Shown here in pieces: positions 6,718 through 30,386 of a stretch of 64,000 nt of DNA (the first letter of the stretch is position 1; every line of letters begins with the position of its first letter). Source of the stretch: a virus (taxonomy: Duplodnaviria > Heunggongvirae > Uroviricota > Caudoviricetes); IMG/VR virus record IMGVR_UViG_3300010369_000001. One strand, given 5' to 3'. The notes beneath the pieces are model-generated. The model saw only the letters and a program-made list of their open reading frames with translations. It had not been told where the DNA came from and ran no database searches. A program made the position numbers and the translations under genes.

Positions 6718-6741
6718 TTATTTAAATAATTCTTTTAAGCT

Positions 6742-7099: not shown

Positions 7100-7118
7100 A
7101 ATTTCCTTTCATAAAAGG

Positions 7119-7144
7119 GTTAAAGAATATCAACTTTATTTACC
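7119..7144 (-). promoter_or_regulatory. Class-1 phage promoter-like motif
   Basis: Minus: GGTAAATAAAGTTGA TATTCT TTAAC. Confidence 0.65.
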
Positions 7145-11352: not shown

Positions 11353-14300
11353 TTAACCGTCATGCGCGAACCAATTGGCATCTTCTTCATTTATAAAAGG
11401 ACTTATTGGCGGCCTGTGCGGCGCGTCATTTGGAAGATTAGGCAATACTGATTTAATAATCGGATTTGGCTGCCCTGGCTTTTGCTTAGTAAAATCAGTA
11501 CGCCCAACAACAGCTGGATAAAATGAAGGCCCAAACGGATCAGCTGTCAGTCCCTTCTGTGTAGCCTCTAAAATAGACTGCTTTTGATATGATCCGCCCA
11601 TTCGAGTTAACCAATCATTACTATATCTAGTATTGGCCATAGCTCGTACCATATTAGATTGAAATTTAGCTGGATTAGGATTTGCTGTAATTTTATCTAT
11701 TCCATATTTCTTTAGGTTAGCTAACACGCTGGGCCGTAGCTTAGTTCCAATCGTATAATGCAATACAGGTTCTTCTAAATATTGATTTGCAAAGTATTCA
11801 GGGCGACCAATTTGGGAATCTTCACGAGGCTCATAGTCAGCTTCATACTGGGAATATGATACTGTCTCATCTGGCAAATAATTACCGTGTTCTTCACTAA
11901 TTCTTACATGGTCTATCAATCCTTTAGCTAGCAACTCAATATTCCGTTTATTAGCTCGTGTGCCAGCTGCTCCTAAGGTATCACTAAATGCCTGTACAAA
12001 ATACCTTCGCCCTTCTCCAATGCCTTTATGGTGCACGACTTCAGCCGGATTTGGCAGCCCGTCAGAAAGAGTGTCGCCGGCTTCAATAACATCACCAACT
12101 TTTACCGTTGGCTTATTTGTATGCGGGATAATATGTTGCTGATTATTTATCGTAACTATTTGATTACCTAGCTCATCTGGCTCTATTTTTGTGACTTTCC
12201 CATCCTCTTGTGAATGAATAGCTCCCTCATAGACCGACGGAACTTGTAGCATCTGATTTAAACTTTTAAACCCTGATACCGCCTTAGCTGTCCCGCCCGC
12301 CACGCCGCCAGAATTATGTGTTATTAGGCCGTTGGCCAGTAGGTAGAGATGAGTTCGATTTGCAATCTCTAAATCATATACTTGTTGTACGCCTATGCCT
12401 TTTGAACTAATTAACGTATATTTTTTATCTTTTTCCTGTGTTTTTAAACTGATGTTATCTAAATTATTTTTTAATTTAGATCGTTTTACACCGTATAAAG
12501 GTATTTCCGTATAAAACAATTTAATATCTTTTCGTCTTAAAATATTAAAAGAATAAAGTGTTCGTTTTCGTCCCGAAGTTGTTTTATAAACTCTGGTGCT
12601 ATGAATCCCAAAACGCACCTCTAATAAATTACGTAATTCACGTACCATTTGCTCAGAAGTAGAGCCAAAGCTCAGCGCTAGCGTGTTTTTCTTAGTCACG
12701 TATATACTGCCATCCGTTATCCACAACCCTCCAATTAATGCAGCTATGGACGTTTTATCCCAGGCTTTAACTACCTCAGGAATAAATTTTTGGTGAGATT
12801 TAGCCCCGTATAAATTCAACTCTTTTAACCATTGCTTCAATGGATTGCGCTCAGATGAAGTCACTCGACCTAAGTTATCGCGTGCAGTTATTTTATTTTT
12901 TAAGCGAGAAATACGATAGTAGCCGTAATGATCTGTTAATTCAGTTATTTTTAAGTTAAACAAATACATGTATGCCTGTAATTGCGGCACTAAAGTATCG
13001 TCATGGCATGACAAGAATACGCCATTAACACTTTTAACAAAACAACCATCACCTAATAAAAGACCTAGTAATAATGCTCTAGACTCCCTGATTCCTTCAA
13101 AATCATAAGTACTTCTTACAGATAGCGCATCATAACTATCACAATTTAGGCCTATTCGTAATGATTTATTTTTTGTATAATTTTTATTGGTTTTTTTCGA
13201 AAATCTTGAAATGGTTGCAAAAAATCGATGCTGATCAGTACACGTAACTGTTATATATTCTTCTGTTTTTCCTATTTGAAAAGTATATTCACTACACTCT
13301 TGCAAACCATTATTAAATATATTACTAACCTGCGCTGGTTTAGCCACTTGATCTTTATCTACGCCTAATACATAATCCCCTATTTTAATTTCTTCGATTT
13401 TTTTAGTGGAAAAATCTGCCATACGAATCAGTGTACCTTCGGCTAAGCAGTGCTTCGAGCTCAAGGAGCCCTGTGTAATTTGCTCAGAAATGGCTTGACC
13501 GGCAGTGATACTAGGATTTTCCCCTGACACACTTAATCTATTTTTAGCTGTCTGGCCTACATCATAAGCGTATAAACTACCATCGCCGGGCCCGCCCACT
13601 ATTGGCGATCTAACAAGAATATCATTTATTTTCTTGTTTTGTAAATCTTTAAGAACTGCATCCGTGATTAATGTATTTCTTTTGTAACCCCCAATGGGGC
13701 TGGCTAAATATCTACCAACGTTACCATTATCATCTGCCGTGGCTGGCAGGCCAGTATTAGGTTTAAATCCTCCGGCCGTTGCATCTTGTGCAGAAATAAC
13801 CCCTTTATGAGCTACCTGGGAAAGCTGTTTCGCCAAAAATCCAGCATCGGCGACTTGGAGCTTCGTATCGACTACTCCTTTTCTAGCCCCAAAACTGCCC
13901 GCCCAATATTCAAATAGATTTAATCCTTCACCGTAATTATGCATTACTGGATACGGAATTGGATTATCGCTCGAGCCTGTATATAATCCATCAAACCCTA
14001 CTCCGGCAGAAACAGCGAATGGATTTCCTTTAGCGCCACTAGCCCGTAATAAAGCGAGCGGTGATTCATCCGCCTCTAATGTTTCAATAAGCTCTTTACG
14101 TAAAGCTTCTCCGCCCTCCAACATTGTCTGATTAACTAACTCGTCTTTTTGCCGTGAAGTTAAATTATCGTTCTCATAAATCTTCTTCAGCTTAGCATTA
14201 ATTCTTTCCCTGTGCTTTTTTGTTACCTCTGGCGTAGTAACTAAATCCGAAGCTAAACTATAGCCTCCTGACCGTTGCGCAAAGGTAGCGCCCAAACGAC

Positions 14301-14454: not shown

Positions 14455-14457
14455 AAT

Positions 14458-15678
14458 TTAATTACGGTAAAGGTATATTAATTGTTCAAGTAAATCTTCG
14501 TCTTTTGTCTGATTTGTTAAATAATTTAACGACTCTGCAGACGGTTTCAAGTTTTCATAAGTTAAGGTAGTAGCTCCGGCAGTCGGTGCTGCCATAGTAC
14601 TGTAATCATTAACTGGGCAAGTAACACATAAATTCCATGTCTTTTCGCACATAGTCTGGCCGCCAACTGACCAACGACCTCTTACTTCAAAACATTCTTT
14701 TAACGTATCATAACAACGATAACCATCTGGCGCAAATACCGGAACAAACTGCCCGCCGCCCGTCAAACGCACGGATGAGGGAGAAACCTCCCAGCTGCCA
14801 CAGTCCGTGTACGGCACGATGTTTAAATAAATAAGCCCTAAGTCATAACCTCCATATGCATTGGCCGCACACGGATTATACATGCTGGAAAAATCATAAT
14901 CATCGTATTCATCGCTGGGCGGAATAGGCCCTCCTTGAATTGGCGGGCAACTTGACCACCGCAAATCCGCCTGACACATATCACAAATATCTACGGCTAC
15001 ATTGTGATGTCTTCTTGAGTTTTCTATAATGCTTGTGTCATTACTATAAATGAAAGTTTGATTTCTAAAGTTATTTGAAATTTCACTAGCTAAATAGTGC
15101 CTTAATGGCATCTCAAACGTAAATCCGCCTTCACGTATTTGTGTAACTTTATTATTAGGTACGTCGATGATATACCTAATAATTTTTTGAGCTAACACGC
15201 TGCCATCTCGCCTATGTGCGGTTAAGGTAAAATCTTGTATTTTTGCCGGCCCTTGAATAGGTATTTTTACGCTAGGCGGAGAAATACCATAATAACCGCC
15301 ATTCATCTCACAATTACAAGCGCCTGCTGTATCGGCCACCCTATCCTCCGGCACGGGATAAGCAGTAAGCTCGCAGTCCCCTTGCGGACATTCTAAGAGA
15401 AGGGTAATTGGTGGAATTAAATCATCAACAGGAATACAAGGTATTTCTGCATCAGGTACCAGCGGCATATTAGCTGGTGGAAATTGAAATGTATCCGTAG
15501 GTGCAGGAAATTCACAGCAAGGCACAGGTACCAGCTGCTGCACATAAGGCATTATATTGCCTGACCCATAGCATTCTCGGTCTAAACCATGTGGATTACG
15601 CACCATCCCTGACGAAAGGTAGCTTAAAGCACCGCTCGACAGGCCAGAACTATAATATGCCGCTAATCCACTTGACAT
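14458..15678 (-). CDS. Cys/Pro-rich hypothetical protein, putative virion component
   Basis: 406 aa; N-terminal SSG repeats, many Cys; in coupled run with three paralogous genes. Confidence 0.7.
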   Translation of the reverse strand: MSSGLAAYYSSGLSSGALSYLSSGMVRNPHGLDRECYGSGNIMPYVQQLVPVPCCEFPAPTDTFQFPPANMPLVPDAEIPCIPVDDLIPPITLLLECPQGDCELTAYPVPEDRVADTAGACNCEMNGGYYGISPPSVKIPIQGPAKIQDFTLTAHRRDGSVLAQKIIRYIIDVPNNKVTQIREGGFTFEMPLRHYLASEISNNFRNQTFIYSNDTSIIENSRRHHNVAVDICDMCQADLRWSSCPPIQGGPIPPSDEYDDYDFSSMYNPCAANAYGGYDLGLIYLNIVPYTDCGSWEVSPSSVRLTGGGQFVPVFAPDGYRCYDTLKECFEVRGRWSVGGQTMCEKTWNLCVTCPVNDYSTMAAPTAGATTLTYENLKPSAESLNYLTNQTKDEDLLEQLIYLYRN

Positions 15679-15680
15679 AA

Positions 15681-16622
15681 TTATTCACAAGGAGGAACCG
15701 GAGGAACCGGCGGCTCCTCACATTCGCCGCGTATGTCACCAATACATGTAATTGTTAAAGTTTGTGGCTCACATTGATCAAGAGGCGTTACCTCCGCAAT
15801 AAAATTATTATCATGCGTTAATACAATATGATTACCGTACGCCCCAGCTACGGTTTTTGCAAAAATTTTACCGGCCTCAATGCCGTCAAATCTATTAGAG
15901 TCCGGAGGATTAAACGGTTCAAAATTACCGTCAAAGTAGCCTTTACCTATTGGTGTTTTAACCTGCCCTAAACCGGCCCCAGCTAGCGGCATTAATACTA
16001 TTCTATTTTCTAAAGGTAAAAAAGTTATTAAACAATTGTAACCTTCTTTAAAAATAACGTCCCCTAAAGTTATGGAACCATAAGACCAGAAAGACGGTCG
16101 ATTTTCAGTCGGATCGGGTAAGCACTTATTACTGGGTAAAAACCTATCTTGATTAAGAATCTCAATAGAGTTTATTTTGCGTTTATTTAGTATTTTGACA
16201 CAGCCAATGTATACTGGAATATCCGTAAATTCAGGTGTTTGGCTGCCCTCAATTGGAAGACAACCTAATAATGCTGCGTGGCCTATCGTTATAAACCCGT
16301 ATAAGTCACTACCCGCTACGCTTTTTATTGTTGTAAAGTCAAGAGTATTTTTAGGAATAATAAACTCTAGCGGATGAAACTCCTCTCCTTCAGAAATAAT
16401 GACAGTTACTTTATAGCCGTCACTTACCTGCCTTAACGAAGCCATTACCTCAGCTGGGCTAATGTCATCGTTGCTAGTGTAAAGAACAATACCTAAATCT
16501 ACAATACCTTTTTGCAGTACATTTATTTCAATTTCACTAAAACTCGAGCGGTTTGACTGAACCTGCTCTTCGTCAAAAGGATAAAAACGTAATGTATTTT
16601 GTGAATAAAAACTAGTTTCCAC
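15681..16622 (-). CDS. Hypothetical protein (paralogue family of 16612-19081), putative structural
   Basis: FYSQNTLRFYPF N-terminal motif; LGDVIFKEGYN. Confidence 0.75.
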   Translation of the reverse strand: METSFYSQNTLRFYPFDEEQVQSNRSSFSEIEINVLQKGIVDLGIVLYTSNDDISPAEVMASLRQVSDGYKVTVIISEGEEFHPLEFIIPKNTLDFTTIKSVAGSDLYGFITIGHAALLGCLPIEGSQTPEFTDIPVYIGCVKILNKRKINSIEILNQDRFLPSNKCLPDPTENRPSFWSYGSITLGDVIFKEGYNCLITFLPLENRIVLMPLAGAGLGQVKTPIGKGYFDGNFEPFNPPDSNRFDGIEAGKIFAKTVAGAYGNHIVLTHDNNFIAEVTPLDQCEPQTLTITCIGDIRGECEEPPVPPVPPCE

Positions 16623-17406
16623 GAGCTGCCAATCGTATGTCTAAACTATTTCGTCTGCCTGTAAGACGTAGCGCATCGCCATAAAGTACTAAACTATTTG
16701 TATATATAGGTATATTGCCATTTATGTCCGGTAACAATGTAAATGATTTACTAATTAAATTAGCCGGATCTCGATTATTAATTACAGTTAAGTCGATACT
16801 TGCTACATACCTATTAAAAAACTCTTCTTCAAATACTTCTTGTCGCCAAATTGCATAATAAGGTTCGCCAGTAAAGTGAAAAAAAACTGCATTATCTTTT
16901 CTTTCTAATGTTATTCCCTGTGTACCAACAAATTCAACATCGCCAGTCACTAGCTGCCCATCTACAATAAAGCCCACTAATCTATCTTCGACTATGGGTA
17001 CATGACACGCTACCTCAAACATGGCCGTACCTCGTAATAACGAATAATCACCATCAGGTACAAATAGAATCGATTCTAAGGACTTAACAACCAATAATCC
17101 AGCTCGCCGACCCCATGTATCGATTAGCTCAATCGTCTTTTTTGTGAACTCATTTATATTTTCCGCTTCAATTCTATAGTGCCCTTCAATAAGTTCTTGA
17201 GTGACTATCGTACCTATGTAAATAGTAATTTGTCCGCGTCGCTTTACCAGTCGAGTTATTTCATATCTATTCTGCCCAGTGACATAAATATGCGCATCAG
17301 CAATAAAGTCTGCAGGAAAATATATCGTGTCCGTCAGCTGAAATGAAGACATTTCGCTGAACGGGTAATTAGCTGCCTCATGATAAGGGAATGCTCTTGG
17401 ATACAT
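16612..17406 (-). CDS. Hypothetical protein (paralogue family), putative structural
   Basis: FPYHEAANYPF; VTGDVEFVGTQGI; LLPDINGNI. Confidence 0.75.
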   Translation of the reverse strand: MYPRAFPYHEAANYPFSEMSSFQLTDTIYFPADFIADAHIYVTGQNRYEITRLVKRRGQITIYIGTIVTQELIEGHYRIEAENINEFTKKTIELIDTWGRRAGLLVVKSLESILFVPDGDYSLLRGTAMFEVACHVPIVEDRLVGFIVDGQLVTGDVEFVGTQGITLERKDNAVFFHFTGEPYYAIWRQEVFEEEFFNRYVASIDLTVINNRDPANLISKSFTLLPDINGNIPIYTNSLVLYGDALRLTGRRNSLDIRLAARGN

Positions 17407-17410
17407 TTAA

Positions 17411-19081
17411 TTAATATGCTTGCAATACGCCAAAACCTGCCCAAAAACGTGGCCTTCCACTGGTGCTAGGCTGGCCGTTAGCTACTCTCCGCCAAGGCAT
17501 AAACCAGGGATTATCTAGCTGAGGCCAGGGTAAATTAGTGGTATCAACTAATACTTCGCCGGTACTTTGTCGATGTAATCTCATTTTTAGTATATATTCT
17601 CCATTAAAATCCATTGGATGCGGTAGCGGCTTCATAAAAAGCCCTAATACTCTATTGCCGGGCAAACTATGATTAAGCTGATCATAATTTGAATCCGGGT
17701 GTCCAGGAGTGTGGTTGTAGAATCTAAAATTCCAAATAACGTCCGGCTCAAACCATGTTCGACGCACTTCTATATTACGAGAATAAGCCCAACTACCACA
17801 GGTTCCTCGAGAACAGAATGTCCCAAATGGGATATAATACCAGTCCCATGCGCTATTGCGTAAGGTAAGTCTTGAATTTGTATCTCTTACACACAAGCCA
17901 CCTGAGCTATGAAAACCGGCTAAACAATTGATTGGCGGCCCTGGCGTACTATTATCGACACATACGCCACCCACTAATATATGTCCTGGAGGGCATTGAA
18001 TTACTTCCTCATCTCTAACGCAAACTCCATTAATAAGAGTAAAACCTTCAGGGCAGGTGAGCACAGGCGGCGGCTCAAATCTGTCTGGTGTACAAATACC
18101 ATTTATTAACGTAAAACCTTCAGGGCAGCTACCGGGCGGATCATTATTACCTCCAGAAACTCTAACGCAAACATCCCCTACCAGCCGAAAACCTTCTGGA
18201 CAAGTTAGCTCCGGTAAAATCAATTCCTCACACTCTGGAAAATATGGGGCAGTAGTTACACAATCAGCTTCAGGCGTTGGGATAGTAGTGATATGATAGT
18301 CTGGATCTGGACACAGAGCTTGCAAATCAAAATCTATACCTAAATGAGCACCAACTGTTTTATCCGGTTGCTCAGGTAGTCGCTCAATAATTGGGGCAAC
18401 TGTAAATGGCCCAATAAACCTTACAGCCAAACTTCCATCAGCCCCAGCAGCAGCGCCATTTATATGCCCGACATTGTGCATCGGCGTTTCTTGATACTGT
18501 GTAAAGTAATTTATGCCATTAGCTAAGTCTTTTTTTAGTTCATCCTCCAGTACAAAAAATATTTTATTGTCTTTAGCCGTAATAGTCAGTCCGTTATCAC
18601 CTATTAATTCCACCAACCCATTAAAACGTATATGCGTTTTATCGCAGGTCGCGGCTAAAAATAAATGCTCTGACCTAAATAAACAACGCTCAGCTATTTT
18701 TGACTGAGCTGCCGAACTGTATCTATGAATTACTGGAAGATCTAAAATATTTAAACGCCCAGGAGTTAACCAGCCAGAATAGCCTTCGGTTATCTGCTCA
18801 AGAAAAACCGGACGACCATAAATCCAGTCACTTTTCAACACAGTAGCTGATAAAATGGGTGTTTCAGCAGTCGCAATAATAACACTTACTAACTCTCGGC
18901 CAATATTTATGCTGCTAATATAAGGCTCATCAGTTAAGCTACAGGATAAAAATATATCCGCAATAAAATCAAGTGGACGGATGTTCCCTTTATCATCTAT
19001 TCCTGTGGCTACAGGATCAAGAATGAAGCTCCTCGCCTCATTGTGAGGCAGAAAATTAAGGTAATTTCTATCTAATGACAC
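17411..19081 (-). CDS. Hypothetical protein (paralogue family) with Cys-rich CPxG repeats, putative tail/adhesin
   Basis: FLPHNEARSFIL; NGLVELIGDNGL; INGAAAGADGS; five CPxGFxLxxGxC repeats; GTG start. Confidence 0.75.
   Translation of the reverse strand: MSLDRNYLNFLPHNEARSFILDPVATGIDDKGNIRPLDFIADIFLSCSLTDEPYISSINIGRELVSVIIATAETPILSATVLKSDWIYGRPVFLEQITEGYSGWLTPGRLNILDLPVIHRYSSAAQSKIAERCLFRSEHLFLAATCDKTHIRFNGLVELIGDNGLTITAKDNKIFFVLEDELKKDLANGINYFTQYQETPMHNVGHINGAAAGADGSLAVRFIGPFTVAPIIERLPEQPDKTVGAHLGIDFDLQALCPDPDYHITTIPTPEADCVTTAPYFPECEELILPELTCPEGFRLVGDVCVRVSGGNNDPPGSCPEGFTLINGICTPDRFEPPPVLTCPEGFTLINGVCVRDEEVIQCPPGHILVGGVCVDNSTPGPPINCLAGFHSSGGLCVRDTNSRLTLRNSAWDWYYIPFGTFCSRGTCGSWAYSRNIEVRRTWFEPDVIWNFRFYNHTPGHPDSNYDQLNHSLPGNRVLGLFMKPLPHPMDFNGEYILKMRLHRQSTGEVLVDTTNLPWPQLDNPWFMPWRRVANGQPSTSGRPRFWAGFGVLQAY
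17887..18202 (-). repeat. Five intragenic CPxG(F/H)xLxxGxCV repeats
   Basis: CPEGFRLVGDVCV, CPEGFTLINGICT, CPEGFTLINGVCV, CPPGHILVGGVCV, CLAGFHSSGGLCV; two copies share gtaaaaccttcagggcag at DNA level. Confidence 0.9.
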
Positions 19082-19097
19082 AATCTAATTATAACTT

Positions 19098-19421
19098 ATG
19101 CAAGAAAAGCTAGAGACGGAGCGAGAATGGCGTGAACAACAACTTAACTACGCTTTTAATAGCCTTATTAAGGTACCACAAGTGTTCAAATTTAGGTCAA
19201 TTAATACTGCGCTTAACTGGGTGAGAAAATACAGCCCTACGTTAATAGGGCTGTTAATTGAGAAGAAATTTACGTTTATTTTGTTTAAGATTAAGAGAAA
19301 AGCTGAAAGCTGCGGTCTTGAAGTCGAACAACAGTGCACAATTTGGATTAAAATCCCAACTACTCAACGAAAGAGTAACATTGCATTTTTAAATTACAAA
19401 AATAATCCCACATTCTCATAA
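19098..19421 (+). CDS. Hypothetical protein; the only credible plus-strand gene
   Basis: Fills a 280-bp gap in the minus-strand gene run; charged, protein-like composition; the minus-strand alternative looks like a shadow ORF. Confidence 0.55.
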   Translation: MQEKLETEREWREQQLNYAFNSLIKVPQVFKFRSINTALNWVRKYSPTLIGLLIEKKFTFILFKIKRKAESCGLEVEQQCTIWIKIPTTQRKSNIAFLNYKNNPTFS

Positions 19422-20505
19422 AGGTGTCCAAACGTTGCTCCAGCGTAGCTTGAAAATAAGGCACATTGTTGCGTCTTTCCATAAAAGTCACTAAATTACG
19501 GCGATTAAATAACTTCTTATTTACTAAATTAAATAACCTATCCCAATTTGGCACTACTCTATCAAAACCATACCCAAATTCCTTCATTTGCCCCTTAAAA
19601 AGTACGCCAAATTTACCATTATCAAGTATGTCTCTATAAATTGGTTGGTCAAAACCCGCAACAAGCAAACCTTGATGTAAGGCAGCTGACAAAAAATAAC
19701 CTACATGATTCATTGGATTAAGATCAATAAATAAATCATGCTGTTCAACAATATTTAGATACTCAAAGTCAGAAAAACAATTTATGACTAAACATTTATC
19801 CGAGCACTCTAACCCCATTTTCTCCACAAACTGAGCTTCTTCACGATAGGATTTACCGTCCATCAATAAGGTAATAAAAACATCAGTACGTTCTTCAAGA
19901 GTTTTAACGATATTCTTAAGAATAGCTAACCTATTGGACGGGTTTTTAATCCCGCACATTGAAATTGTTACTTTTATTTGTTCTGGATTAATTAGATCGC
20001 ACCGAGTAGGTTTAAGAGTTCTAAATGAGCCCGGGTAGCAAGCCTGCGCACCATAGGGGCTTCCCATTAAACAGTTATTAAAGCGATTGTCTAGCTGCTT
20101 TGTAGGTAAAATAATAGATTGATATTTTTTAGAGCTGCACATTTGCTCCCAATCCCACTTAACATAGTCAGCAAACAAATAATTTTGACAACCCTTTGAT
20201 TTGTCGATATAATCTCTGCGATAGTCAAACCAATACACTGCTTTAGCTTGAACTTTGTCGCCTTGAGCAGTATAGCCTCTCAAGCGACGTGCAAAATCAT
20301 TAGGACTGACTATCCTGCGCACACAGTGATCTATTAGCGGGGAACAGTAGCTAGAGATTGGGTCTAATGTAACATATTCAAAATTATATTTTCGAATATC
20401 TACAGTTTTTTTTACGATAAAAGAAGCCATTGCAGAAGCATAAACAGCAGCTTCACTCTGTTTATACGGAGCAAAGAAAATAACGCGCCTTTTTGGTGTT
20501 GACAT
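19360..20505 (-). CDS. Divergent GT-B (GT4-like) glycosyltransferase
   Basis: C-terminal DLFIDLNPMNHVGYFLSAALHQGLLVAGFDQPIYRDILDNGKFGVLF resembles the GT4 donor-binding segment, but the canonical E-x7-E is not retained. Confidence 0.5.
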   Translation of the reverse strand: MSTPKRRVIFFAPYKQSEAAVYASAMASFIVKKTVDIRKYNFEYVTLDPISSYCSPLIDHCVRRIVSPNDFARRLRGYTAQGDKVQAKAVYWFDYRRDYIDKSKGCQNYLFADYVKWDWEQMCSSKKYQSIILPTKQLDNRFNNCLMGSPYGAQACYPGSFRTLKPTRCDLINPEQIKVTISMCGIKNPSNRLAILKNIVKTLEERTDVFITLLMDGKSYREEAQFVEKMGLECSDKCLVINCFSDFEYLNIVEQHDLFIDLNPMNHVGYFLSAALHQGLLVAGFDQPIYRDILDNGKFGVLFKGQMKEFGYGFDRVVPNWDRLFNLVNKKLFNRRNLVTFMERRNNVPYFQATLEQRLDTFMRMWDYFCNLKMQCYSFVE

Positions 20506-20573
20506 AGGGGTATGAGTTTAGAATTAGGGGTAATTATAAGAGTAGGCGTAATATACCCCAGCTAGAATAATTG

Positions 20574-21149: not shown

Positions 21150-21185
21150 ACTTCTTTAAACCCCGCAAGGTTACAAAAGTTCTTC

Positions 21186-21197
21186 TCTCGCGCGAGA
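21186..21197. repeat. 12-bp palindrome TCTCGCGCGAGA (also at 4939-4950 and 49607-49618)
   Basis: Direct reading; the 21181 and 49606 copies share 18 bp in inverted orientation. Confidence 0.8.
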
Positions 21198-21201
21198 AAA
21201 A

Positions 21202-21705
21202 TTACCATCTAAACGGCGGCCGTTGTTGCGGATGTCCAAACTGTGTGGGGAAGGATTGATTCCACCCATGCTGCTGAGTGAAATTTTGATTCCATCCGGG
21301 CCCGGGCCGAGACTGATGGATGTTAATCTGGGTTGGTCTTGTCATGTTGTGCATAACAATACCGTGAAATACGCGATCAACAATATGCGGTGCAGCTGCC
21401 GCCAATACTGCGCCTGGGCGCGGTTGGTAATGGTGCTGTACCATCACCATTCTTTGTCCCGTTATCCCGCAAATGAAGATTTGCTGCGGCTGAGGAGGTG
21501 CCATGACCGCGTGTACCTGCACATTAACAGGCTGCTGTGCTTGTATAGGCTGTGGCACCTGTAAATGTGCTCGCAAGGCTTGCTCTCGCTTTAACGCCTC
21601 AATTTGGGCGTTAATTTGAGCATCTGATAGCTGCTCAACAACTTGCCCTAGGGCAGCTGTTGCAAGCAATAATGTAGCAACACAAAAAATAATGAGATGT
21701 TTCAT
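21202..21705 (-). CDS. Secreted Gln/Pro-rich low-complexity protein
   Basis: Signal peptide, SD AGGAGA, QHGWNQ-type repeats at C-terminus. Confidence 0.7.
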   Translation of the reverse strand: MKHLIIFCVATLLLATAALGQVVEQLSDAQINAQIEALKREQALRAHLQVPQPIQAQQPVNVQVHAVMAPPQPQQIFICGITGQRMVMVQHHYQPRPGAVLAAAAPHIVDRVFHGIVMHNMTRPTQINIHQSRPGPGWNQNFTQQHGWNQSFPTQFGHPQQRPPFRW

Positions 21706-21726
21706 TGTTAGTCTCCTATTGTTAGA

Positions 21727-21753
21727 GGTTAAATTATCCCAAAATCATGTACC
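21727..21753 (-). promoter_or_regulatory. Class-1 phage promoter-like motif
   Basis: Minus: GGTACATGATTTTGG GATAAT TTAACC, same spacing as the 6257 and 7119 copies. Confidence 0.6.
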
Positions 21754-21769
21754 AGAATAGTCACCATAT

Positions 21770-22204
21770 TTAACGCCTAAATGAGCCGTCCGGATTTGCC
21801 CCGATATTCTGATTTACGCTGCGAGTCATAGGCGTAAAGCTAGGCTGTAGTCCTCCTGGATTTTGAGGAGAAAAGGGCGGCGCAGAATGCCACTGCGTAT
21901 AAAGATTCGCCAGTCCTAGCCCTGATGTACCAAGAGTGGAGCCTAAGCCAGTTCCCACTGATAACAACTTCCGCTGCATAGGAAATGAGACATTATTGGA
22001 AAACCATCCTTTTAAGTTCTCTCCAATATTGCCTAAAAAGGCCTGCTTACTAAAAGGAACATACTTAGCTTCTTTTACTTTTTCCGGTAGTGTTTTCATA
22101 TTCGGTGTCTCCTGTGCCCATCTGTGTGCGGTACCTTCGGGTAACTCCCCGTCAGCTTCAGCTGCAAAAAAGAATCTTTGTTGTGCTTTAGACTTGAATG
22201 GCAT
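21770..22204 (-). CDS. Hypothetical phage protein
   Basis: MPFKSKAQQRFFFAAEADGELP N-terminus; Gly-rich hydrophobic segment; TAATG-coupled. Confidence 0.7.
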   Translation of the reverse strand: MPFKSKAQQRFFFAAEADGELPEGTAHRWAQETPNMKTLPEKVKEAKYVPFSKQAFLGNIGENLKGWFSNNVSFPMQRKLLSVGTGLGSTLGTSGLGLANLYTQWHSAPPFSPQNPGGLQPSFTPMTRSVNQNIGANPDGSFRR

Positions 22205-22992
22205 TAGCGTATCCCCCTTCTTCGTCTTTCTTCTTCCTCTCTAGCGCGCTGCTCTCGCTGCCTTGACAACATGTAAAGCCCGCCAATACCTAAAGCCCCA
22301 ACTCCACCTGCGGCAGCAACCCAAGGAGCCCAGTCACCAATAGTCTTCCACATATTCTGACCCTGCCTCTGTAAACCGCTCGCGTTTTGATTCAGTTCAG
22401 CTATGTGCGGCATACTGTCGTCCAGCGCACCAGCTAAATTGTGCATTCCCTCAGCAGCCTGCTGTCCTCCGCGATTTATTCCTCGACCAATAAAATAACC
22501 GCCGCCACCTAAGCCGCCTAGTAATCCGCCGCCTACAGCTAAATTCTGACCTGTATTACCGCCTCGCGCAGCTGTCGCCGTATTTACGGCATTAGCTGCC
22601 GACGTACCGCCGCCGCCAATGTTATATCCGGGCCCCGCAGGGTATGGGTAACTTGCAGTGGGCGTTGCTGTCATTCTAGGTGCTGCCGAAGCCGACGGCG
22701 TAGTAAATGTCCAAGGAGCATTGGGGTTAAATCGTTGTACGTTACGCCCTACAGTATCCCAATCATTTCTACTCATTGCGTGTAGCGTATGCCTTAACTG
22801 ATCATATTTAGCTCCATGAGCTGCCATATCAAACAAATGATCACTGTTCTGGGCAGTTAGTCGACCAAACCCAGGTAATGCTCGAATAGCATCATCTGAT
22901 AATGTTGTAGAAACTGCCTTAACCGCACCGCCGGACGCCAGCTTCAAAATACCATCGACATTAATTTCTACAATTTTTAATATGCCTTGCAT
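22204..22992 (-). CDS. Gly/Ala-rich protein with glycine-zipper segments and charged tail
   Basis: GGGLLGGLGGGG and AAGGVGALGIGGLYML followed by RQREQRAREEEERRRR. Confidence 0.7.
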   Translation of the reverse strand: MQGILKIVEINVDGILKLASGGAVKAVSTTLSDDAIRALPGFGRLTAQNSDHLFDMAAHGAKYDQLRHTLHAMSRNDWDTVGRNVQRFNPNAPWTFTTPSASAAPRMTATPTASYPYPAGPGYNIGGGGTSAANAVNTATAARGGNTGQNLAVGGGLLGGLGGGGYFIGRGINRGGQQAAEGMHNLAGALDDSMPHIAELNQNASGLQRQGQNMWKTIGDWAPWVAAAGGVGALGIGGLYMLSRQREQRAREEEERRRRGIR

Positions 22993-23004
22993 AATATCTT
23001 TAAT

Positions 23005-24552
23005 TTAAAATATAGCCCCAAAAGTGTCTACAAAAGCCTTATTTAATGTTTTAGGGTATTCAATAATTTGACCCCTATAAAAATCAGCATTTTGTGCGAC
23101 ACCCGCCGCTTCTTGCCCTAAACGACTGACACCATCAGCGGATATACGGCGCGCATCCTGAGGCTGAAGCGCCCTACCTGCTACTAAATCACCCATGCCT
23201 CGAAGACCTGCACGATACCATGCAGTACTCCTATCTAATCCTTCTCTCCATACATTTCTTGAACCGCCTGACAAATTACTTAAACTGCTACTCAACGCAC
23301 CAACAGTGTTGGGCTTACCTGTAAGTTTGTTATGAGCTAAATACCCAGCTAAGCCACCAATACCCAAACCACCTATCCCTAAAGCTGCCGGAAGAATGTA
23401 ATCAGAAAAACGTAATCTACCGCGACGCTTAGTCTCTCTCTCTATATTATCCTGCAAGCTAAAAAATCGATCGTCAGAAATATTTCTTCTGGTTAAATCA
23501 TCCTGCGCCCTAAGCTGATACCTTTCCGCATCCCTACGGCGCGCATTACTCTTATCTCTTAACACATTATAGGCACCCACCAAACCAAGAGCCCCTATTC
23601 CAGTACCAATACCTGCCGCGCCTAATAAATTTACAGCATTACTTGCATTTTGAGCTGGTTCTTTGTAAGAACGTAAAAGCTCATTTGTAGTATTTAGATT
23701 TTGCACCAAGGCACTATCTGGAGAAGTTAAACTTTCCTTCACCGCATCTTGTATATTATTCCCCATGAGCGCGCCGCCTGCGCCAAGACCCCCTGCAAAA
23801 CCTGCACCAATCGGGACAGAAATTGCTAAACGGCCCATAACGTTTCCTTTTTTAACAGTTTCACCCTCTAATGCCCTGTTAAAAATGTTGGGCATAATAT
23901 TTTTTATCCCACTGTAAGTAAGGTAGCCTAGTCCAGCACCGGCCCCTAACGTAGCTAAAGGCCCTAAATAATCACTAAACTGTAAACGACTGCGCTTAGC
24001 CGCCTGATCCTCTAGCTCTAATTGCCTAGCTAAATATTCGTGCTTATCTAGCCCAGCTCGTACTAAATTTTTCTCCGCATGCCATAGTCGTCGCTCCGCA
24101 TCTCGTCTACGTCTATCTTTATTACGATTTAACCAAGAATACGCGCCTAAGGCGCCAAGCGAACCCATTGAACCTGCACCTAAATAGGCAGCTAAGTTCC
24201 CGCTAACATTACCAAAACCTTCAACTCCTTTATTTAGCTTATCGCTAAAACTAACTACCGCAGCATTAAAAGTATCGTCTAAACTTCGCTCACGAGTTGA
24301 ATTTATCAAATGCTGCGTAGGCCTGTCAATCAAAGCCTCAGCTGCTCCTTGCGCAGGATTGCCAGCTGCAGCAGCTTCTGCGTTAGGCAGTATAAAACCT
24401 TTATCTAAAGCATTTACACCTGCCATGCCCGTCACGCCTAGCATGCCAGTTCCAAGCAAGCCGTTTAGTGCACGCCCTATCCACGCCAATTTGAGAACTT
24501 GTTTATCATCCACACTATAATTATAAGGCCGCTCTCTTTTAAGAATCTCCAC
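23005..24552 (-). CDS. Gly/Ala-rich glycine-zipper protein with internal duplication, putative internal virion/ejection protein
   Basis: Two copies of GALG..AY...RRRDAER...RL(Q/R)FSDY...G.G.GYL. Confidence 0.7.
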   Translation of the reverse strand: MEILKRERPYNYSVDDKQVLKLAWIGRALNGLLGTGMLGVTGMAGVNALDKGFILPNAEAAAAGNPAQGAAEALIDRPTQHLINSTRERSLDDTFNAAVVSFSDKLNKGVEGFGNVSGNLAAYLGAGSMGSLGALGAYSWLNRNKDRRRRDAERRLWHAEKNLVRAGLDKHEYLARQLELEDQAAKRSRLQFSDYLGPLATLGAGAGLGYLTYSGIKNIMPNIFNRALEGETVKKGNVMGRLAISVPIGAGFAGGLGAGGALMGNNIQDAVKESLTSPDSALVQNLNTTNELLRSYKEPAQNASNAVNLLGAAGIGTGIGALGLVGAYNVLRDKSNARRRDAERYQLRAQDDLTRRNISDDRFFSLQDNIERETKRRGRLRFSDYILPAALGIGGLGIGGLAGYLAHNKLTGKPNTVGALSSSLSNLSGGSRNVWREGLDRSTAWYRAGLRGMGDLVAGRALQPQDARRISADGVSRLGQEAAGVAQNADFYRGQIIEYPKTLNKAFVDTFGAIF

Positions 24553-24569
24553 CTTGACCCTTAACTAGC

Positions 24570-27500
24570 TCATCGCCGCAGGATCTCAACTTCATCGGAC
24601 AACTGAACTTCGCCTCTTACCCATGCTTGCTTAAAATCAGCCATTGTTGCGAAGACCTTTGGGCGGCTTTTCTTTTTTCTAGATCTAGTAGCTTCATAAA
24701 GCCCAGCTATGTAGTCCTCTTGTGGCGTAAAGTTAGGAGACCCATCAGTCATATTTAGTAAATTTTGTGAAGGCAGCATCAATCTTATTGCATCTTGAAC
24801 TGCGTCATCGCTGATAGGTAATTGAAAATTCATAGCATCGCCGTCGAGGTCAGCACCAAAGCCTCCCATGGTATATTGATTCATTTGGATGCTATTTCCT
24901 TTAACTAGCTTAGGCCAAAAAGCCATAATTCCATATTGGTGCAAAATAGGAGATCGATCAAGAACTACTGGACGCTCTTGCACTGACTGTAAAAGTGCAG
25001 CTTTAGCTCGCTTGTCTTTATTATCGTACATGTCCTGAGCTGTCGTAAGCGGAACACCGCTTTGAGCTAGCTTCCTGATAATTACTGGTTTATAGATTTC
25101 ATAAGCTGAATTAATGGGTAGCCCAACTTCATCTAAATCAAGATTGGGCGACATGGTAATTACGTTACGGGAAACAACGTCAACGCCTCCACCCAATAAA
25201 TTACGTTGTACCATTCCATATTTACTGCTCCCCTCCCCAAAGACATGTCGCAATAACCCTGTTACCCGTTTTTGCTGTAGCTTGGGATGGGACGGATCCA
25301 TTAATCCAGTTATTTGTTTAAAATAGTTGTAAGACTGCAAATACTCTTCACCTGCGTCACCAATTTGACCTTCTAGCTCCTTAACTGTTTTATCGTGATC
25401 AATCATTTGCTTATACAAATAATTAACATCGGCAATTAAAGCAGTTTTTGTCCCGCCCATCTCAGACACGGGCCGGAACTTAGGCGGTATAACTGGAATA
25501 CGATCCAGCATCCAATCAGCTGGCGTTAAATCATTATCTTTAGCTGCCTTTAAGAACTGCAGCTTCTTTACTGCTTCATCTCTTTTTGTGCCTCTTGTAC
25601 TGGCTATAGTTTCACGAGCACGAGACATTTCATGGTCAACATTTAGCTTGCCTAAAGCTTTTCTAATAGCTTGTGGCCCAGTTCCAAACTCATTTAATTG
25701 TGCCCGACCAGCTATGACATCATTTAATTTAGCCTGTGTCAAACCTAGCATTCTTCTAGCTGGCTCTTCCATTACCGGATTAAGCATAGGCTGAGCTGGT
25801 TTAATAAAGCCCCATTTCTCGCCATACTCACCAAAAATAGCTGGATCAAATAATCCGCCTTTAATACCCTTTTTATCGCCTTCCCACTTAATTGTTTCAG
25901 AAGAAGTGACTTCCCTATTACCAACTAATTGCTTGACATCATTATTAGTAAGGGCCAAGATTTTCAGCTTGTTAGCTGTTGGCGTTACATTAATTCCCGA
26001 TCCTTGAAGGTGAGCCATAAACTTATGATACATTTGAGGCATTTCTGGCTCAGGCGGCTGATAACCTCTCATAAAAGCTGCCCAATAGTCATCATTTTTC
26101 TGCCCACGAATTCGCCTCGCATCAGCTAACATGTTATAAGCTCCATGACTTATAAGGGCGTTTGTGTGCATAAGAGCTACTCTTTTGGCCCCTTCACTGC
26201 CTCCGCTTGCAGGTTGTTCATCAGCTGTGTAATGACCAAAAGAACGGTCACTTGTCTTTCCCTCAGCTGAATGATGGAGTTTTTGAACGTAGCTGTAGCC
26301 CCACCCAATACCCTTTCCGTCCGTCCCGGTTATTAATTTACCTGTTTCAGGATCTAATACTGGATCCCGTGGATTAATTCCATGTTCTTTTGCCAAGCGC
26401 AAAACATATGCCGCCGTGTCAGGCTCCTTGGGATCAAATGATTCAATCTTAATTGGCTTACCAGTTTTCTTAGCAATTCGGCCTAATAAATGCTCATGCA
26501 GCATCGAATAATTTACTCTACCGATATTTCCTATTGGAGAATATACAATTTCAGCTGGGCCATCAGGAGTTTGTGGCATCTGATCATCAGGGACTATCTC
26601 AGCAATAACGCCTTTTGCCCCATATCTGTTCGCGAGCTTATCTGCCAAACGTGTTGGCGACAAAGAACTTACGACTACATTAACACCATTCTTATCATTA
26701 AACACCTCAACCACCTGACCTGGGTCTTCATGATCCCATTCCAGCGCACTATTAGTTAATGACTGTGCGCCTTTACGATGGATGCGATCAACCGGTTTTG
26801 TATTTACATCAGCTTTAAGCACCATTGGGTCGCCTTGATTTAAGACTGTCCCAATACGTACAACACCGTCATCGTCGATAGTGTCTAGCTGAGCTGCATC
26901 ATAGACTGATGGAAATGCGCCCATAAAGGTTTTCTTACCCTGCTTAATATTCTCAGCCCAATCTACTTTATGCTGATAGGCATGCTGAGACTTCATACGA
27001 TCAGCCATCGATTTGCTGATAATAATTGCATCCATAGTATTACTGCCTCTCCACGGCATTACAACCGCCCTAGCATTAAACCCCTGTGCCATTGCGCCAG
27101 TATCATCCGTAAAATTAGATTTAGCTAACAGCTGGCCTTTTGTAATCTGCTGACCGGGTTGAACTACTGGAGTTTGAGTAGTATAAGTATTGTGCACAAC
27201 TAACCCACCGCCTACACAAAAACAATGCGAATTAGCTACCGTCAAATCATATACATCAGTAACGAACTCTGTTAGTTTTATTTCTGTGATTAAATCCCAT
27301 TCAATATCCGAAGCTGCCCACAATCCAAAATTACCAGAAATATCTTTTAGTAATTTTTTAGGTATTGCGCCTTTTGTACCGTACCTGTATAATTCTCGCC
27401 ATTTTTTTAATTCCCAAAATTTCTTAGGTCTTAAATTTTTTAATAATTTAATTGAAGCTTTACTAACTGGTACTTTTTCAGTACAGCCCGTTATTTGTCG

Positions 27501-30386
27501 TTTATTTTTTTGACAATTTAAAAGATCATCTAATAATTTTTGACGATCTTCATAAATAAACCATGTTTTTAATTTTTTAATACTTTCCGTTCTAACACGA
27601 AAACCATATGCATCCGCCCATTTATCATTTATTAATTTTCTAGGAGAAAATAAAATAGTCGTTGAAACGTTTAAAGAAGCTAAAATATCAACTAAATCAT
27701 CACGTAAACGTTCGGAAGTAACAAACACACACAATTGAATAGCGCCGTTTATGTCCGTATGTAAGCAAGCATCGCCGCTAAAAAATCCAGCAATAAGTCC
27801 TTGCCTAAAAGCTTTAGACTCACCTAACAGTTCATCAGCTATATATTTAGTACCAGAATATCTTCCACAATAATTAAATAAATCGCAAGCCAATGCCGCA
27901 TTTGCTATTCTTACTCCACCTTTTATCGGCAATGCCTTATTTTCTGCCGACCAATCTTGTAAATAAGTCAGGACTTGTTGCTTACGAGACTGACCCTCAA
28001 CAGCAAAATTAACCTCACTATAAATATTGCCATCATTAGCTTTAAATTTTTCCAATTTTTTACGACCGGCATCTCCCTTTTTCGGAAATTTTGATTGTGC
28101 TTGATGTACTGAAGTATGTGCAACAGCCCGTTTTAAATAGCCTTCAGCAAGATAAAGCCCAGTAACCGCTCCTCGAACATATTCTGCCCTGTAATCGTAT
28201 TCCCTTTTTTCACTAAGCGCTAATGATGCAATAGGTATTCGTGTTTTACCGACGATACATTCCGATGGAAATAACGGTACAAGCGCACCAATATCATTTA
28301 AAGTTACTAAACTATGATCTTCAGTTACCTGCACTTTTCGTCCAGATTTTGTAACTATTTCAAGTATTTGTTTATCTTTATTAGTTACTTTTTGTACCGC
28401 TGTTACGGCTTCCCAACCGGTATTATAATTATTTTGTTGAATAGTTCGTGTCTTATCTCCGGGTTGCCAGCTATAGTCTTTTATTTTTCCTCGCCAAATT
28501 TTTCCAGTTTCCCGTAATATGTAAATCTTAGTGTCACCTACAACACACTTTCTATTGCTTGCTGCGTTCTTGACAAAAGGAAATTTCTTTTGTCCTTCTG
28601 GAGTGTCAATAATAATTTCTCGATCAGTTACTTTTCTAACCATGCCCTCTACATCAGAATTAACAGTAGAAAAGAGACCTATTTTGTCTTCATATGACTC
28701 ATCTTTAGCTCCTGGCATACGTGATTGAACTAAAGGGGATTCGCCGCCTTCTAAAGGCAGTGCTTGAGTAATCATACGAGCTGCCATCGATACTCGCTGT
28801 CCTTTTACATTCCCCAGCATGGGAATTAAATTAGAAAGATTGTTGTAGCCTGACTGCGCATTGGGAAAAATATAATCAATTTGATCTTTTTTAATTCCCA
28901 TTCTGGGTTGCCTATCTCTGTCGAAGGCAGAAATACGATCATCCCCTTTGGCCCACTCTGATTGAAGCGTGACCGTAGCTTCCATCAAATCTACTGGATT
29001 TTTATATTCTTCCTTACCTGTTCGGGCATTTATTACTGGAATATATAAATTACCGTCGGATCCTTTTTTAGCTGACGAGCTAATATAAAGGTCAACTCCT
29101 GCCCTTAAAGATTCTGGTGTTTGTAGCGGATCAATAAACCCATATTGACTATTGTTTACCTCGCGAGCTGAGTCTGGGATAGCGTTTGAGTCATTGATTG
29201 CTCCCGCACCCATTCTTGTCACGCTAAATAACTTAGAATACTGCTCATATGGGTTTACTTCCTCAGCTGGGCTAGCTAACCCACTTTGAGTAATAACCGC
29301 CCCAATTTGTTTCGATAATGCACCAGTTGGTATTTTATCTAAATTGGGATTATTATTTGACAAGAATGTCAGTTTATTTAATAGTTGCCTTCTTACTCTA
29401 CCGTCATCTAATCTAAGTCGCTCAGCAAATAAATCTTCTGGCCCGTGAAAGGATTGAAAAGCCATATTATCTCGACTATCACTTTCAACTTCTCCACGAG
29501 CTAATTGAACTAATTTTTTAGATGCACTTAACACAGCGTCCTTATCTAAATGATCCTTTTCTGTCCCAAGTGTTGATCGAGTTACTTCCTTAGCAAATTT
29601 AATCGCAGCAGCTTGCTCTTGAATACGCTCACGCATTTTAGCGTCACTGTCTTTATCTCCTGGTTGCTGATATTTCTTCCTTACAAAACGATCATACAGC
29701 TTACGAGTATTTACTTCTCTTGCGTGTGCTTTATTTGTTTCAAATAATTTATCACCCCAAGCTTCCTTTAACTCATCGTCGGACGCGCCCATTGCATGCA
29801 AAAAAGTATACAACGGCACATTATTTTTACTGACTTCCATATCAAATCTACCGGTAGTTGGGTCAAACTTATAAGAATGTGTCGGCCCTTCATGGTCAGC
29901 TGCATTTACATTAGCCACCAGCTCATTATTCTCCTTTTGTCTAACATAAATTCCATGCTTAAGTCTTTGCTGATTACGGATGTAATAGAGATTACCAGAG
30001 TCCATGACCCCACCATTGTCCAAAATATACGGGACATTAGCTAAAGTCTTGCGCTGTTTCTGTAGAAGCCTTCCTGTTTGAGTGTCTATTAAATTCCAAG
30101 TACCTCTAAGCCTGCGATTGAGTGACCGTTGCTGGATTCTAGCTTGGTGAACATCGTGCGCATTGTATGCAGGATTGTCAGCCCAATCTACATCAGAAAT
30201 GGACAGCGTGTAGCGATTATTAGACACAGGCTGCAAATTACTTGCGGCTTGATGTACGGAATCAAATACCGCACTTCTAAGAGCTGCAGGATCGTCAAAG
30301 GCTCTCATCCGAACAGCTGGTTTTTCGTCCTCTTTCTTTTGCTGCGGAGGCCGTAAAGTATTCTGAAAAAGCGGCGGTGTAGTCAT
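24570..30386 (-). CDS. rpoB: Phage multi-subunit RNA polymerase, beta fused to N-terminal half of beta', intein-containing
   Basis: Beta motifs GFIDPLQTPES..AG, RVSMAARMITQALPL, DKLANRYGAKGVI, KLHHSAEGK..RS, GAKRVALM; beta' motifs GLFDPAIFG, WMLDRIPVIPPKFRP, RNLLGGGVDVVSRNVI, VVLDRSPILH, GADLDGDAM. Confidence 0.93.
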   Translation of the reverse strand: MTTPPLFQNTLRPPQQKKEDEKPAVRMRAFDDPAALRSAVFDSVHQAASNLQPVSNNRYTLSISDVDWADNPAYNAHDVHQARIQQRSLNRRLRGTWNLIDTQTGRLLQKQRKTLANVPYILDNGGVMDSGNLYYIRNQQRLKHGIYVRQKENNELVANVNAADHEGPTHSYKFDPTTGRFDMEVSKNNVPLYTFLHAMGASDDELKEAWGDKLFETNKAHAREVNTRKLYDRFVRKKYQQPGDKDSDAKMRERIQEQAAAIKFAKEVTRSTLGTEKDHLDKDAVLSASKKLVQLARGEVESDSRDNMAFQSFHGPEDLFAERLRLDDGRVRRQLLNKLTFLSNNNPNLDKIPTGALSKQIGAVITQSGLASPAEEVNPYEQYSKLFSVTRMGAGAINDSNAIPDSAREVNNSQYGFIDPLQTPESLRAGVDLYISSSAKKGSDGNLYIPVINARTGKEEYKNPVDLMEATVTLQSEWAKGDDRISAFDRDRQPRMGIKKDQIDYIFPNAQSGYNNLSNLIPMLGNVKGQRVSMAARMITQALPLEGGESPLVQSRMPGAKDESYEDKIGLFSTVNSDVEGMVRKVTDREIIIDTPEGQKKFPFVKNAASNRKCVVGDTKIYILRETGKIWRGKIKDYSWQPGDKTRTIQQNNYNTGWEAVTAVQKVTNKDKQILEIVTKSGRKVQVTEDHSLVTLNDIGALVPLFPSECIVGKTRIPIASLALSEKREYDYRAEYVRGAVTGLYLAEGYLKRAVAHTSVHQAQSKFPKKGDAGRKKLEKFKANDGNIYSEVNFAVEGQSRKQQVLTYLQDWSAENKALPIKGGVRIANAALACDLFNYCGRYSGTKYIADELLGESKAFRQGLIAGFFSGDACLHTDINGAIQLCVFVTSERLRDDLVDILASLNVSTTILFSPRKLINDKWADAYGFRVRTESIKKLKTWFIYEDRQKLLDDLLNCQKNKRQITGCTEKVPVSKASIKLLKNLRPKKFWELKKWRELYRYGTKGAIPKKLLKDISGNFGLWAASDIEWDLITEIKLTEFVTDVYDLTVANSHCFCVGGGLVVHNTYTTQTPVVQPGQQITKGQLLAKSNFTDDTGAMAQGFNARAVVMPWRGSNTMDAIIISKSMADRMKSQHAYQHKVDWAENIKQGKKTFMGAFPSVYDAAQLDTIDDDGVVRIGTVLNQGDPMVLKADVNTKPVDRIHRKGAQSLTNSALEWDHEDPGQVVEVFNDKNGVNVVVSSLSPTRLADKLANRYGAKGVIAEIVPDDQMPQTPDGPAEIVYSPIGNIGRVNYSMLHEHLLGRIAKKTGKPIKIESFDPKEPDTAAYVLRLAKEHGINPRDPVLDPETGKLITGTDGKGIGWGYSYVQKLHHSAEGKTSDRSFGHYTADEQPASGGSEGAKRVALMHTNALISHGAYNMLADARRIRGQKNDDYWAAFMRGYQPPEPEMPQMYHKFMAHLQGSGINVTPTANKLKILALTNNDVKQLVGNREVTSSETIKWEGDKKGIKGGLFDPAIFGEYGEKWGFIKPAQPMLNPVMEEPARRMLGLTQAKLNDVIAGRAQLNEFGTGPQAIRKALGKLNVDHEMSRARETIASTRGTKRDEAVKKLQFLKAAKDNDLTPADWMLDRIPVIPPKFRPVSEMGGTKTALIADVNYLYKQMIDHDKTVKELEGQIGDAGEEYLQSYNYFKQITGLMDPSHPKLQQKRVTGLLRHVFGEGSSKYGMVQRNLLGGGVDVVSRNVITMSPNLDLDEVGLPINSAYEIYKPVIIRKLAQSGVPLTTAQDMYDNKDKRAKAALLQSVQERPVVLDRSPILHQYGIMAFWPKLVKGNSIQMNQYTMGGFGADLDGDAMNFQLPISDDAVQDAIRLMLPSQNLLNMTDGSPNFTPQEDYIAGLYEATRSRKKKSRPKVFATMADFKQAWVRGEVQLSDEVEILRR
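27189..28547 (-). mobile_element. Intein with LAGLIDADG homing endonuclease (453 aa)
   Basis: Starts CVVGDT (codon at 28547), ends GGGLVVHN then Thr+1; VTGLYLAEGY and LIAGFFSGDAC blocks; AT-rich. Confidence 0.93.

Follow-up and report, generated by a model that had tools for sequence, protein, structure and literature searches.

A 64,000-nucleotide stretch of viral DNA, hereafter the window, carries two genes (Table 1) whose products, as predicted from their sequences, are the two chains of one active RNA polymerase (RNAP) of the bacterial, two-barrel type. Chain A joins beta to the N-terminal part of beta', and chain B supplies the C-terminal part of beta'. Both chains of the cultured orthologue from Salmonella phage Arash, whose enzyme is ~29% identical, are present in its purified particles together with the sigma factor of the family (published proteome, PMC10585845). 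We consider it likely that the two chains and a phage sigma form a holoenzyme that is delivered with the virion.

Table 1. Location of the RNAP genes, their parts and neighboring features in the window.
Feature	Coordinates	Strand	Details
Chain A gene: beta fused to N-terminal beta'	24570..30386	-	1938 aa ORF; 1484 aa spliced; no cysteine when spliced
Beta part	25974..30386	-	aa 1-1471, including the intein
Beta intein with LAGLIDADG domain	27186..28547	-	Chain A aa 614-1067; Cys start, His-Asn end, Thr +1
Beta/beta' in-frame junction	25956..25976	-	~5 residues (aa 1471-1477)
N-terminal beta' part (E. coli ~18-553)	24573..25958	-	Zipper, lid, clamp helices, catalytic barrel
Catalytic loop DLDGD in GADLDGD	24837..24851	-	Three aspartates intact
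Three cysteine-free genes immediately after chain A	21770..24552	-	515, 262 and 144 aa
Seven remaining spacer genes	14458..21705	-	Not RNAP parts; not conserved between the RNAP genes in relatives
Chain B gene: C-terminal beta' (E. coli ~571-1360)	11353..14454	-	1033 aa ORF; 653 aa spliced; no cysteine when spliced
Bridge helix region	13810..13923	-	Chain B aa 178-215
Trigger loop, N-terminal half	13450..13482	-	Ends at the catalytic His (H936 equivalent, aa 335)
Trigger-loop intein with LAGLIDADG domain	12310..13449	-	Chain B aa 336-715; Ser +1
Promoter-like word GGYA-N8-TG-N6-10-TTAAC	5700..7144	-	Four copies upstream of small genes

Architecture of the two chains

The initial annotation of this DNA had described a 1938-aa ORF that runs from beta into beta' and stops soon after the catalytic DxDGD motif, with the bridge helix and trigger loop in a separate 1033-aa ORF ten genes away. 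Both descriptions held. Pfam domains follow one another along chain A in the order Rpb2_2, Rpb2_3, Rpb2_6, then Rpb1_1 and Rpb1_2 with no intervening stop, and the ORF ends 92 residues after its DxDGD motif (aa 1846). For chain B, the coordinates, the Pfam match (Rpb1_5) and the profile alignment agree. The ORF lengths were likewise correct, but the description had left out the inteins, whose removal shortens the mature chains to 1484 and 653 aa.

Intein-free sequences were aligned to RpoB/RpoC, a step that the initial annotation had recommended, and the breakpoints were mapped. Using a family profile aligned to Salmonella RpoB+RpoC, chain A was found to span beta ~22-1342 and beta' ~18-553 (E 5e-151) and chain B to start at beta' ~571, placing the split between beta' 553 and 571; the end of chain B (~1360) was set by eye, as the automatic alignment slips there. 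With inteins removed, the two chains cover the whole catalytic core in this profile alignment with zero overlap. Chain A retains the equivalents of beta residues R678, D814, K1065, K1073, R1106 and H1237, and its beta' part has those of D460/D462/D464 and R425, the signature of a two-barrel multisubunit-type RNAP. The position equivalent to E813 is Met in chain A and Glu in 38 of the 42 aligned rows, and the one equivalent to N458 is Gly. Missing from chain A are the beta insertions specific to the E. coli lineage and the beta' zinc-binding domain (66-98; deletion point at ~25821-25826), and the rifampicin pocket is changed (Q513S, D516E, H526K, R529S, S531T). In the trigger loop of chain B, Q929 and H936 are retained and R933 is replaced by Ser, while the cysteines of the second zinc site (C814, C888, C895, C898) align to A, G, Y and D. 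The structure predicted for a chain B relative that has no intein (pLDDT 77) had a bacterial beta' as its best match (E 2e-27, TM 0.56).

The chain B intein is inserted immediately after the trigger-loop histidine, so its splicing is presumably required for activity; splicing of both inteins would have to precede enzyme function. Both are more AT-rich than their exteins (G+C content of 0.35 for the beta intein and 0.33 for the chain B intein vs 0.41-0.43), and most relatives lack inteins.

Genomic context and assembly support

The window consists of phage-like DNA with nearly all genes on the minus strand, and it originates from termite-gut metagenomes in which its contigs reach up to 225 kb. 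We conclude that the virus carrying it is a jumbo phage of about 225 kb. The whole stretch was recovered in a single contig in two runs, possibly including the window's own source, with no differing letter or gap, and two more runs of low depth had one substitution and zero indels over the covered parts. We also searched for a stop between the beta and beta' parts, which the initial annotation had named as the observation that would speak against a fusion. None was present in the contigs, and chain A is one uninterrupted ORF in 78 of 80 related IMG/VR loci, the two broken loci being broken inside beta and not at the junction. An assembly or frameshift artefact, or decaying host genes on a phage, is extremely improbable given these concordant contigs, the independent homologues that number in the hundreds and share both their boundaries and their invariant catalytic residues, the peptide coverage in a cultured phage, and the position of the clade outside bacteria.

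A distance of 10,115 nt, occupied by ten ORFs on the minus strand, separates the two RNAP genes. Across loci, chain A and chain B are separated by 0.8 to more than 7 kb. Among close relatives, gaps of 3.4 and 6.3 kb contain other genes and one genome carries the pair in reversed order, suggesting that the 10-kb gap of the window is incidental. The three genes next to chain A had no family match. Those of 515 and 262 aa are Gly/Ala-rich, with glycine-rich hydrophobic segments, and an Atlas search with the 515-aa protein gave sub-threshold matches only. The products of the three genes are candidate co-ejected virion proteins. Further downstream (14458-19081, minus strand), four tightly packed genes, two of them very cysteine-rich, possibly encode tail-fibre parts; one gene in this group, of 556 aa, encodes EGF-like repeats, and its homologue in locus L266 is located next to the RNAP genes. 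Two HNH-endonuclease-like genes lie just downstream of chain B (9442-10308 and 10405-11265, minus strand). The window also contains, all on the minus strand, a gene for a glycosyltransferase fused to a Nol-like carbamoyltransferase (962-3340), with a possible role in DNA or surface modification, as well as tRNA-Pro(TGG) at 41930-42005 and tRNA-Met(CAT) at 43158-43229.

Distribution of the family

When the C-terminal part of chain A was used as the query, 553 proteins were found at E 1e-30 or better, the top ones mostly 1450-1500 aa long and carrying both beta and beta' domains. The chain B search returned 1303 proteins, the top ones mostly of 620-650 aa. Detecting the family required an alignment, as a scan of viral contigs with a single sequence found nothing. 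In 66 of the 80 IMG/VR loci, those where chain B falls within reach, it is a separate downstream gene on the same strand, usually ~1 kb off. Cultured members are Salmonella phage Arash (OQ632216; gp206, 1525 aa; gp216, 606 aa) and Vibrio phages D69, D148 and D181. The enzyme of the window has the features of this Arash-like family, namely the fusion, the split before the T-x-G motif, the deleted zinc-binding domain and membership of one clade. Hence, the layout is a distinct two-subunit one, as first proposed, but not an oddity: it is standard in a large family with cultured members.

No description of this fusion/split layout was found in the literature searched, a coverage that leaves out most subscription papers, and a 2026 review of jumbo phages mentions neither Arash nor the two-chain layout. 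As far as searched, the layout is thus undescribed, even though its proteins are publicly available and a virion proteome has been published for one member.

Several observations were made among the relatives. Loci L107 (9213-14727) and L004 (2189-8555) have a chain A that is broken inside beta, probably by a self-splicing intron; in Vibrio phage D181, a homing-endonuclease gene makes the break. Chain B carries cysteine-poor C-terminal extensions of 300-750 aa in loci L016, L019, L031 and L054, with a P-loop kinase-like domain in L019. In most relatives, two conserved and nearly cysteine-free genes flank chain A (as in L006, 9080-9934 and 14363-15088), one with glycine-rich hydrophobic segments and the other Pro/Ala-rich with a short helical core. 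These conserved neighbors were neither alpha- nor sigma-like in Pfam and PHROGs searches and had no significant match in the window. Eight of 22 metagenome-assembled genome (MAG) contigs with family members (L085-L106) were labelled Planctomycetota, a weak hint of the host. We rejected these labels as host evidence, since the contigs have the appearance of phage DNA that was binned, and an ordinary rpoC is also present in most of the MAGs. In an Acidobacteriaceae MAG (L256), what looked like a split rpoC was a frameshift artefact.

Order of events in the phage lineage

A scan for the catalytic motif revealed the whole enzyme in a single phage chain of 2048, 2291, 2153 or 2037 aa, with 0, 5, 4 and 0 cysteines, respectively. 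In these single-chain relatives, a turn of 2-4 residues connects what corresponds to the C-terminus of chain A with the N-terminus of chain B; it forms the tip of a hairpin, and the E. coli hairpin is longer. We built a tree from 941 columns and 57 rows (LG+G4), in which several outgroup rows are gappy and cyanobacteria have no row. The two-chain forms, including Arash and D181, formed one clade (100/97) nested among the single-chain forms, with support of 100/100 when three single-chain forms are considered and 96/95 with all four, and monophyly of the single-chain forms was rejected (p 9e-6). The ten bacterial rows formed their own clade (100/100), so that the two-chain family does not lie inside Bacteria, and six verified rows from mReC phages formed a separate clade (100/99), the base of the tree being unresolved. 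Because bacteria and mReC phages have a whole beta' and the two-chain forms are nested in single-chain ones, the simplest history is one beta-beta' fusion followed by one later split at the tip of a surface hairpin. The order of the two events that the initial annotation had seen combined can now be read as fusion first.

Comparison with known RNA polymerases

Closest to the enzyme of the window are those of Arash (gp206, gp216 and sigma gp10), D69, D148 and D181, which share the fusion, the split site and the deleted zinc-binding domain and belong to the same clade. Besides its low identity (~29%), the Arash enzyme differs in having no inteins, in keeping the second zinc site and in coming with a second sigma.

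The initial annotation had advised a comparison with phage clades that carry deep-branching multisubunit RNAPs before calling the enzyme new. Like the window's virus, mReC phages are tailed, and their cell-like multisubunit RNAP can be aligned to RpoB/RpoC and falls outside bacteria (PMC7481178). They are defined by beta and beta' matches of >=800 aa with NADxDGD (Weinheimer and Aylward, 2020, PMC7481178), and the enzyme of the window falls outside this definition with its GADLDGD motif and a C-terminal beta' of 653 aa once spliced. In mReC phages, beta and beta' are separate proteins in all 47 rows considered from the published table (PMC7481178). The six mReC contigs in our set, assigned to the published table by sample and length (L148, L193, L215, L226, L234, L244), encode a separate, unsplit beta' of ~900 aa with 15-21 cysteines in the parts seen. 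Moreover, mReC phages often have two RNAPs per genome, whereas the family of the window has one. The enzyme is thus not of mReC type, with separate, zinc-bearing subunits and a separate clade setting the latter apart. Neither a capsid nor a terminase gene, for both of which mReC phages share a clade, could be identified in the window. A clade of two-chain forms and mReC that leaves out the single-chain forms was rejected (p 0.002), and it is possible that the whole family is sister to mReC. Three more cultured phages with layouts of their own (loci L108, 9334-14136; L002; L109) grouped neither with the verified mReC rows nor with the two-chain family: beta' is unfused, cysteine-rich and encoded by two genes in Vibrio phage 150E35-1, and it is whole in Rhizobium phage RHph_Y65 and Cobetia phage Carin-5.

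The RNAPs of phiKZ and AR9 share the beta' split after the catalytic barrel and, with the enzyme as proposed here, the lack of alpha and omega; one of their forms is packaged in the virion (PMC7598289, PMC7824862). In contrast to the enzyme studied here, they comprise four or five core chains with beta also split and no fusion, occur as two enzymes per genome, have no recognizable sigma-70 and are far more divergent (PMC7598289, PMC7824862). Earlier, phiKZ-like enzymes had been set aside as split differently, and the split of the window enzyme had been likened to those of cyanobacteria and archaea. Both views need adjusting: beta' of the phiKZ-like enzymes is cut at about the cyanobacterial site too, leaving the split beta and the lack of fusion as the true differences, and the archaeal site is another one (PMC7598289).

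In cyanobacteria and plastids (RpoC1/RpoC2), beta' is also cut soon after the catalytic barrel, and cyanobacterial RpoC2 begins 10-17 residues after the start point of chain B. There is however no fusion in these enzymes, alpha and the zinc sites are present, and the phage split, unlike theirs, arose inside the phage clade, being nested in single-chain forms. In Helicobacter and Wolbachia, RpoB and RpoC are fused, the C-terminus of beta being joined to the N-terminus of beta'. This fusion contains a whole beta' and belongs to a cellular enzyme with alpha, and it resembles the single-chain phage relatives in layout only. The virion RNAPs of N4/DEV and of crAss-like phages are packaged and ejected, as proposed for the enzyme of the window, but that of N4 belongs to the T7 family, which is unrelated. 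The crAss-like one is a single chain with no recognizable match to RpoB/RpoC profiles (PMC7481178). The family is a variant of the phage two-barrel RNAPs and not another kind of enzyme.

Sigma factor, alpha and a promoter-like word

No alpha, omega or sigma gene had been recognized in the window by the initial annotation. This is correct for the 64 kb, where we found no family sigma, but relatives in the family have their own sigma elsewhere in the genome. Using a phage-sigma profile, a divergent sigma-70-like gene was detected in 21 of 24 related genomes, including single-chain members; in a 75%-identical relative, it lies 7.5 kb from the RNAP genes. With Pfam Sigma70_r2, a sigma had appeared in only 1 of 19 IMG/VR genomes, a false negative overturned by the phage-sigma profile. 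All 22 family sigmas analyzed are homologous to Arash gp10, contain no cysteine and pass the Sigma70_r3 cut-off. The second sigma of Arash (gp196) has cysteines.

We modelled the sigma of the 75%-identical relative in complex with a fragment of its own chain A. The model reached an ipSAE of 0.65 (best control 0.00), a mark that 58 of 80 solved pairs and 2 of 110 mismatched pairs reach; runs agreed in >=81% of contacts, with a partner pLDDT of >=77. As in bacterial holoenzymes, the modelled contacts map to the flap tip and switch region and to the zipper, lid and clamp helices, so the score may reflect resemblance to solved structures of this kind.

The window contains a promoter-like word (Table 1) with a fifth copy starting at 21753 (minus strand), which brings the count to 5 vs 0.27 expected, and a looser pattern occurs 18 times vs 6.0 +/- 2.1. 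The word, which showed no enrichment in 24 related genomes, is a candidate target of the phage sigma.

Regarding alpha, PF01193 gave nothing over its cut-off in 21 related genomes (the control matched 14 of 14). Each of these 21 genomes has one locus for the catalytic subunit (PF00623), a search that a very divergent second enzyme could escape. Across the family, positions with Asp, Met, Pro, Thr and Gly are kept in the segments equivalent to the alpha-contacting segments 1081-1091 and 1214-1219 of E. coli beta. Such partly kept motifs could mean that the same two-chain enzyme borrows the host alpha dimer, and perhaps omega, as an assembly platform and works as a hybrid, and the enzyme is indeed closer to bacterial RNAP than the phiKZ enzymes are. 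However, the motifs have structural roles too, the phiKZ/AR9 enzymes function without alpha (PMC7598289), and the hosts are diverse (Salmonella, Vibrio and probably others), with an enzyme only ~26% identical to the host RNAP. We therefore regard a hybrid enzyme as unlikely.

Cysteine content and virion proteome

The initial annotation was silent on cysteine and zinc, yet both spliced chains are without cysteine and both zinc sites are gone. The two ORFs contain 16 cysteines, all in the inteins, leaving 0 in 2137 extein residues vs 1.9% in the other proteins of the window; Salmonella RpoB+RpoC have 22. Among relatives, which are not independent samples, 78 of 96 chain A and 89 of 90 chain B proteins are cysteine-free. 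Of the two four-cysteine zinc sites of bacterial beta', the first was deleted and the second substituted, the latter being retained in Arash (4 Cys in gp216) and a few relatives. Cysteine suppression is a mark of the ejection proteins of Schitoviridae (N4-like phages), which are cysteine-free, and it has been ascribed to passage through the periplasm (PMC11445570).

In the virion proteome of Arash, gp206 ranked first by spectra (128 peptides), and gp216 and sigma gp10 were found with 40 and 24 peptides, while gp196 was not among the virion proteins (PMC10585845). The particles came from a sucrose gradient and yielded 116 proteins, and the authors allow for enzyme carry-over; the chains are named beta and beta' in that paper, the shifted boundary being unremarked (PMC10585845). 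A nearly cysteine-free superfamily-2-type helicase, also present in Arash virions (gp217), often adjoins the RNAP genes of relatives (L001, 29306-30724; right after chain A in L018, L021, L025, L028 and L034) and is not in the window. It is a candidate packaged partner of the RNAP.

The impure virion preparation (PMC10585845) leaves room for a non-virion enzyme that transcribes middle or late genes, with the Arash signal as carry-over and the lack of cysteine as zinc economy or a response to redox stress; the single RNAP per genome and the zinc site kept by some members would fit such a role. Against it stand the first rank of gp206 in the particles (PMC10585845), the presence there of only gp10, the cysteine-free and family-wide one of the two Arash sigmas, and the fact that the conserved neighbors and the virion helicase of Arash are nearly cysteine-free when other genes are not. 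We thus judge a purely intracellular enzyme to be slightly less probable still than the hybrid with host alpha.

Proposed role and significance

For the favored virion-delivered holoenzyme, we propose that the particle contains the enzyme together with the phage sigma-70-like factor and that both are ejected along with the DNA, crossing the envelope of a host that has two membranes. The cysteines, and thereby both zinc sites, would have been lost because the chains cross the oxidizing periplasm. In the cytoplasm, the three proteins would assemble without alpha or omega, the fusion tying the halves of the active site together, and the holoenzyme would transcribe early genes, probably being insensitive to rifampicin. 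As each genome has a single RNAP, later genes may also be transcribed by newly made enzyme.

Tentatively, and with slightly more doubt than confidence, we suggest that the family has the smallest known transcription system of bacterial type. It would consist of a sigma of ~240 residues and two chains, or a single chain in basal members, would be injected whole with the genome, would work without alpha, omega, zinc or cysteine in early and later transcription, and would form a separate, undescribed lineage of phage multisubunit-type RNAPs. Such a lineage would come with a cultured model, Arash, already in hand. The two-chain layout also corrects database labels, in which the chains are 'beta' and 'beta prime'. 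The models for alpha-free assembly of a cell-type RNAP, phiKZ and AR9, need five divergent chains, whereas the far more bacterial-like enzyme of this family seems to manage with one or two chains and no zinc-binding domain. It offers a simple test case for what alpha, omega and zinc are needed for. It also provides a dated natural example in which subunits fused and were then split near the cyanobacterial and phiKZ site, and possibly a compact orthogonal polymerase. With Arash available, the biology of the family is testable now.
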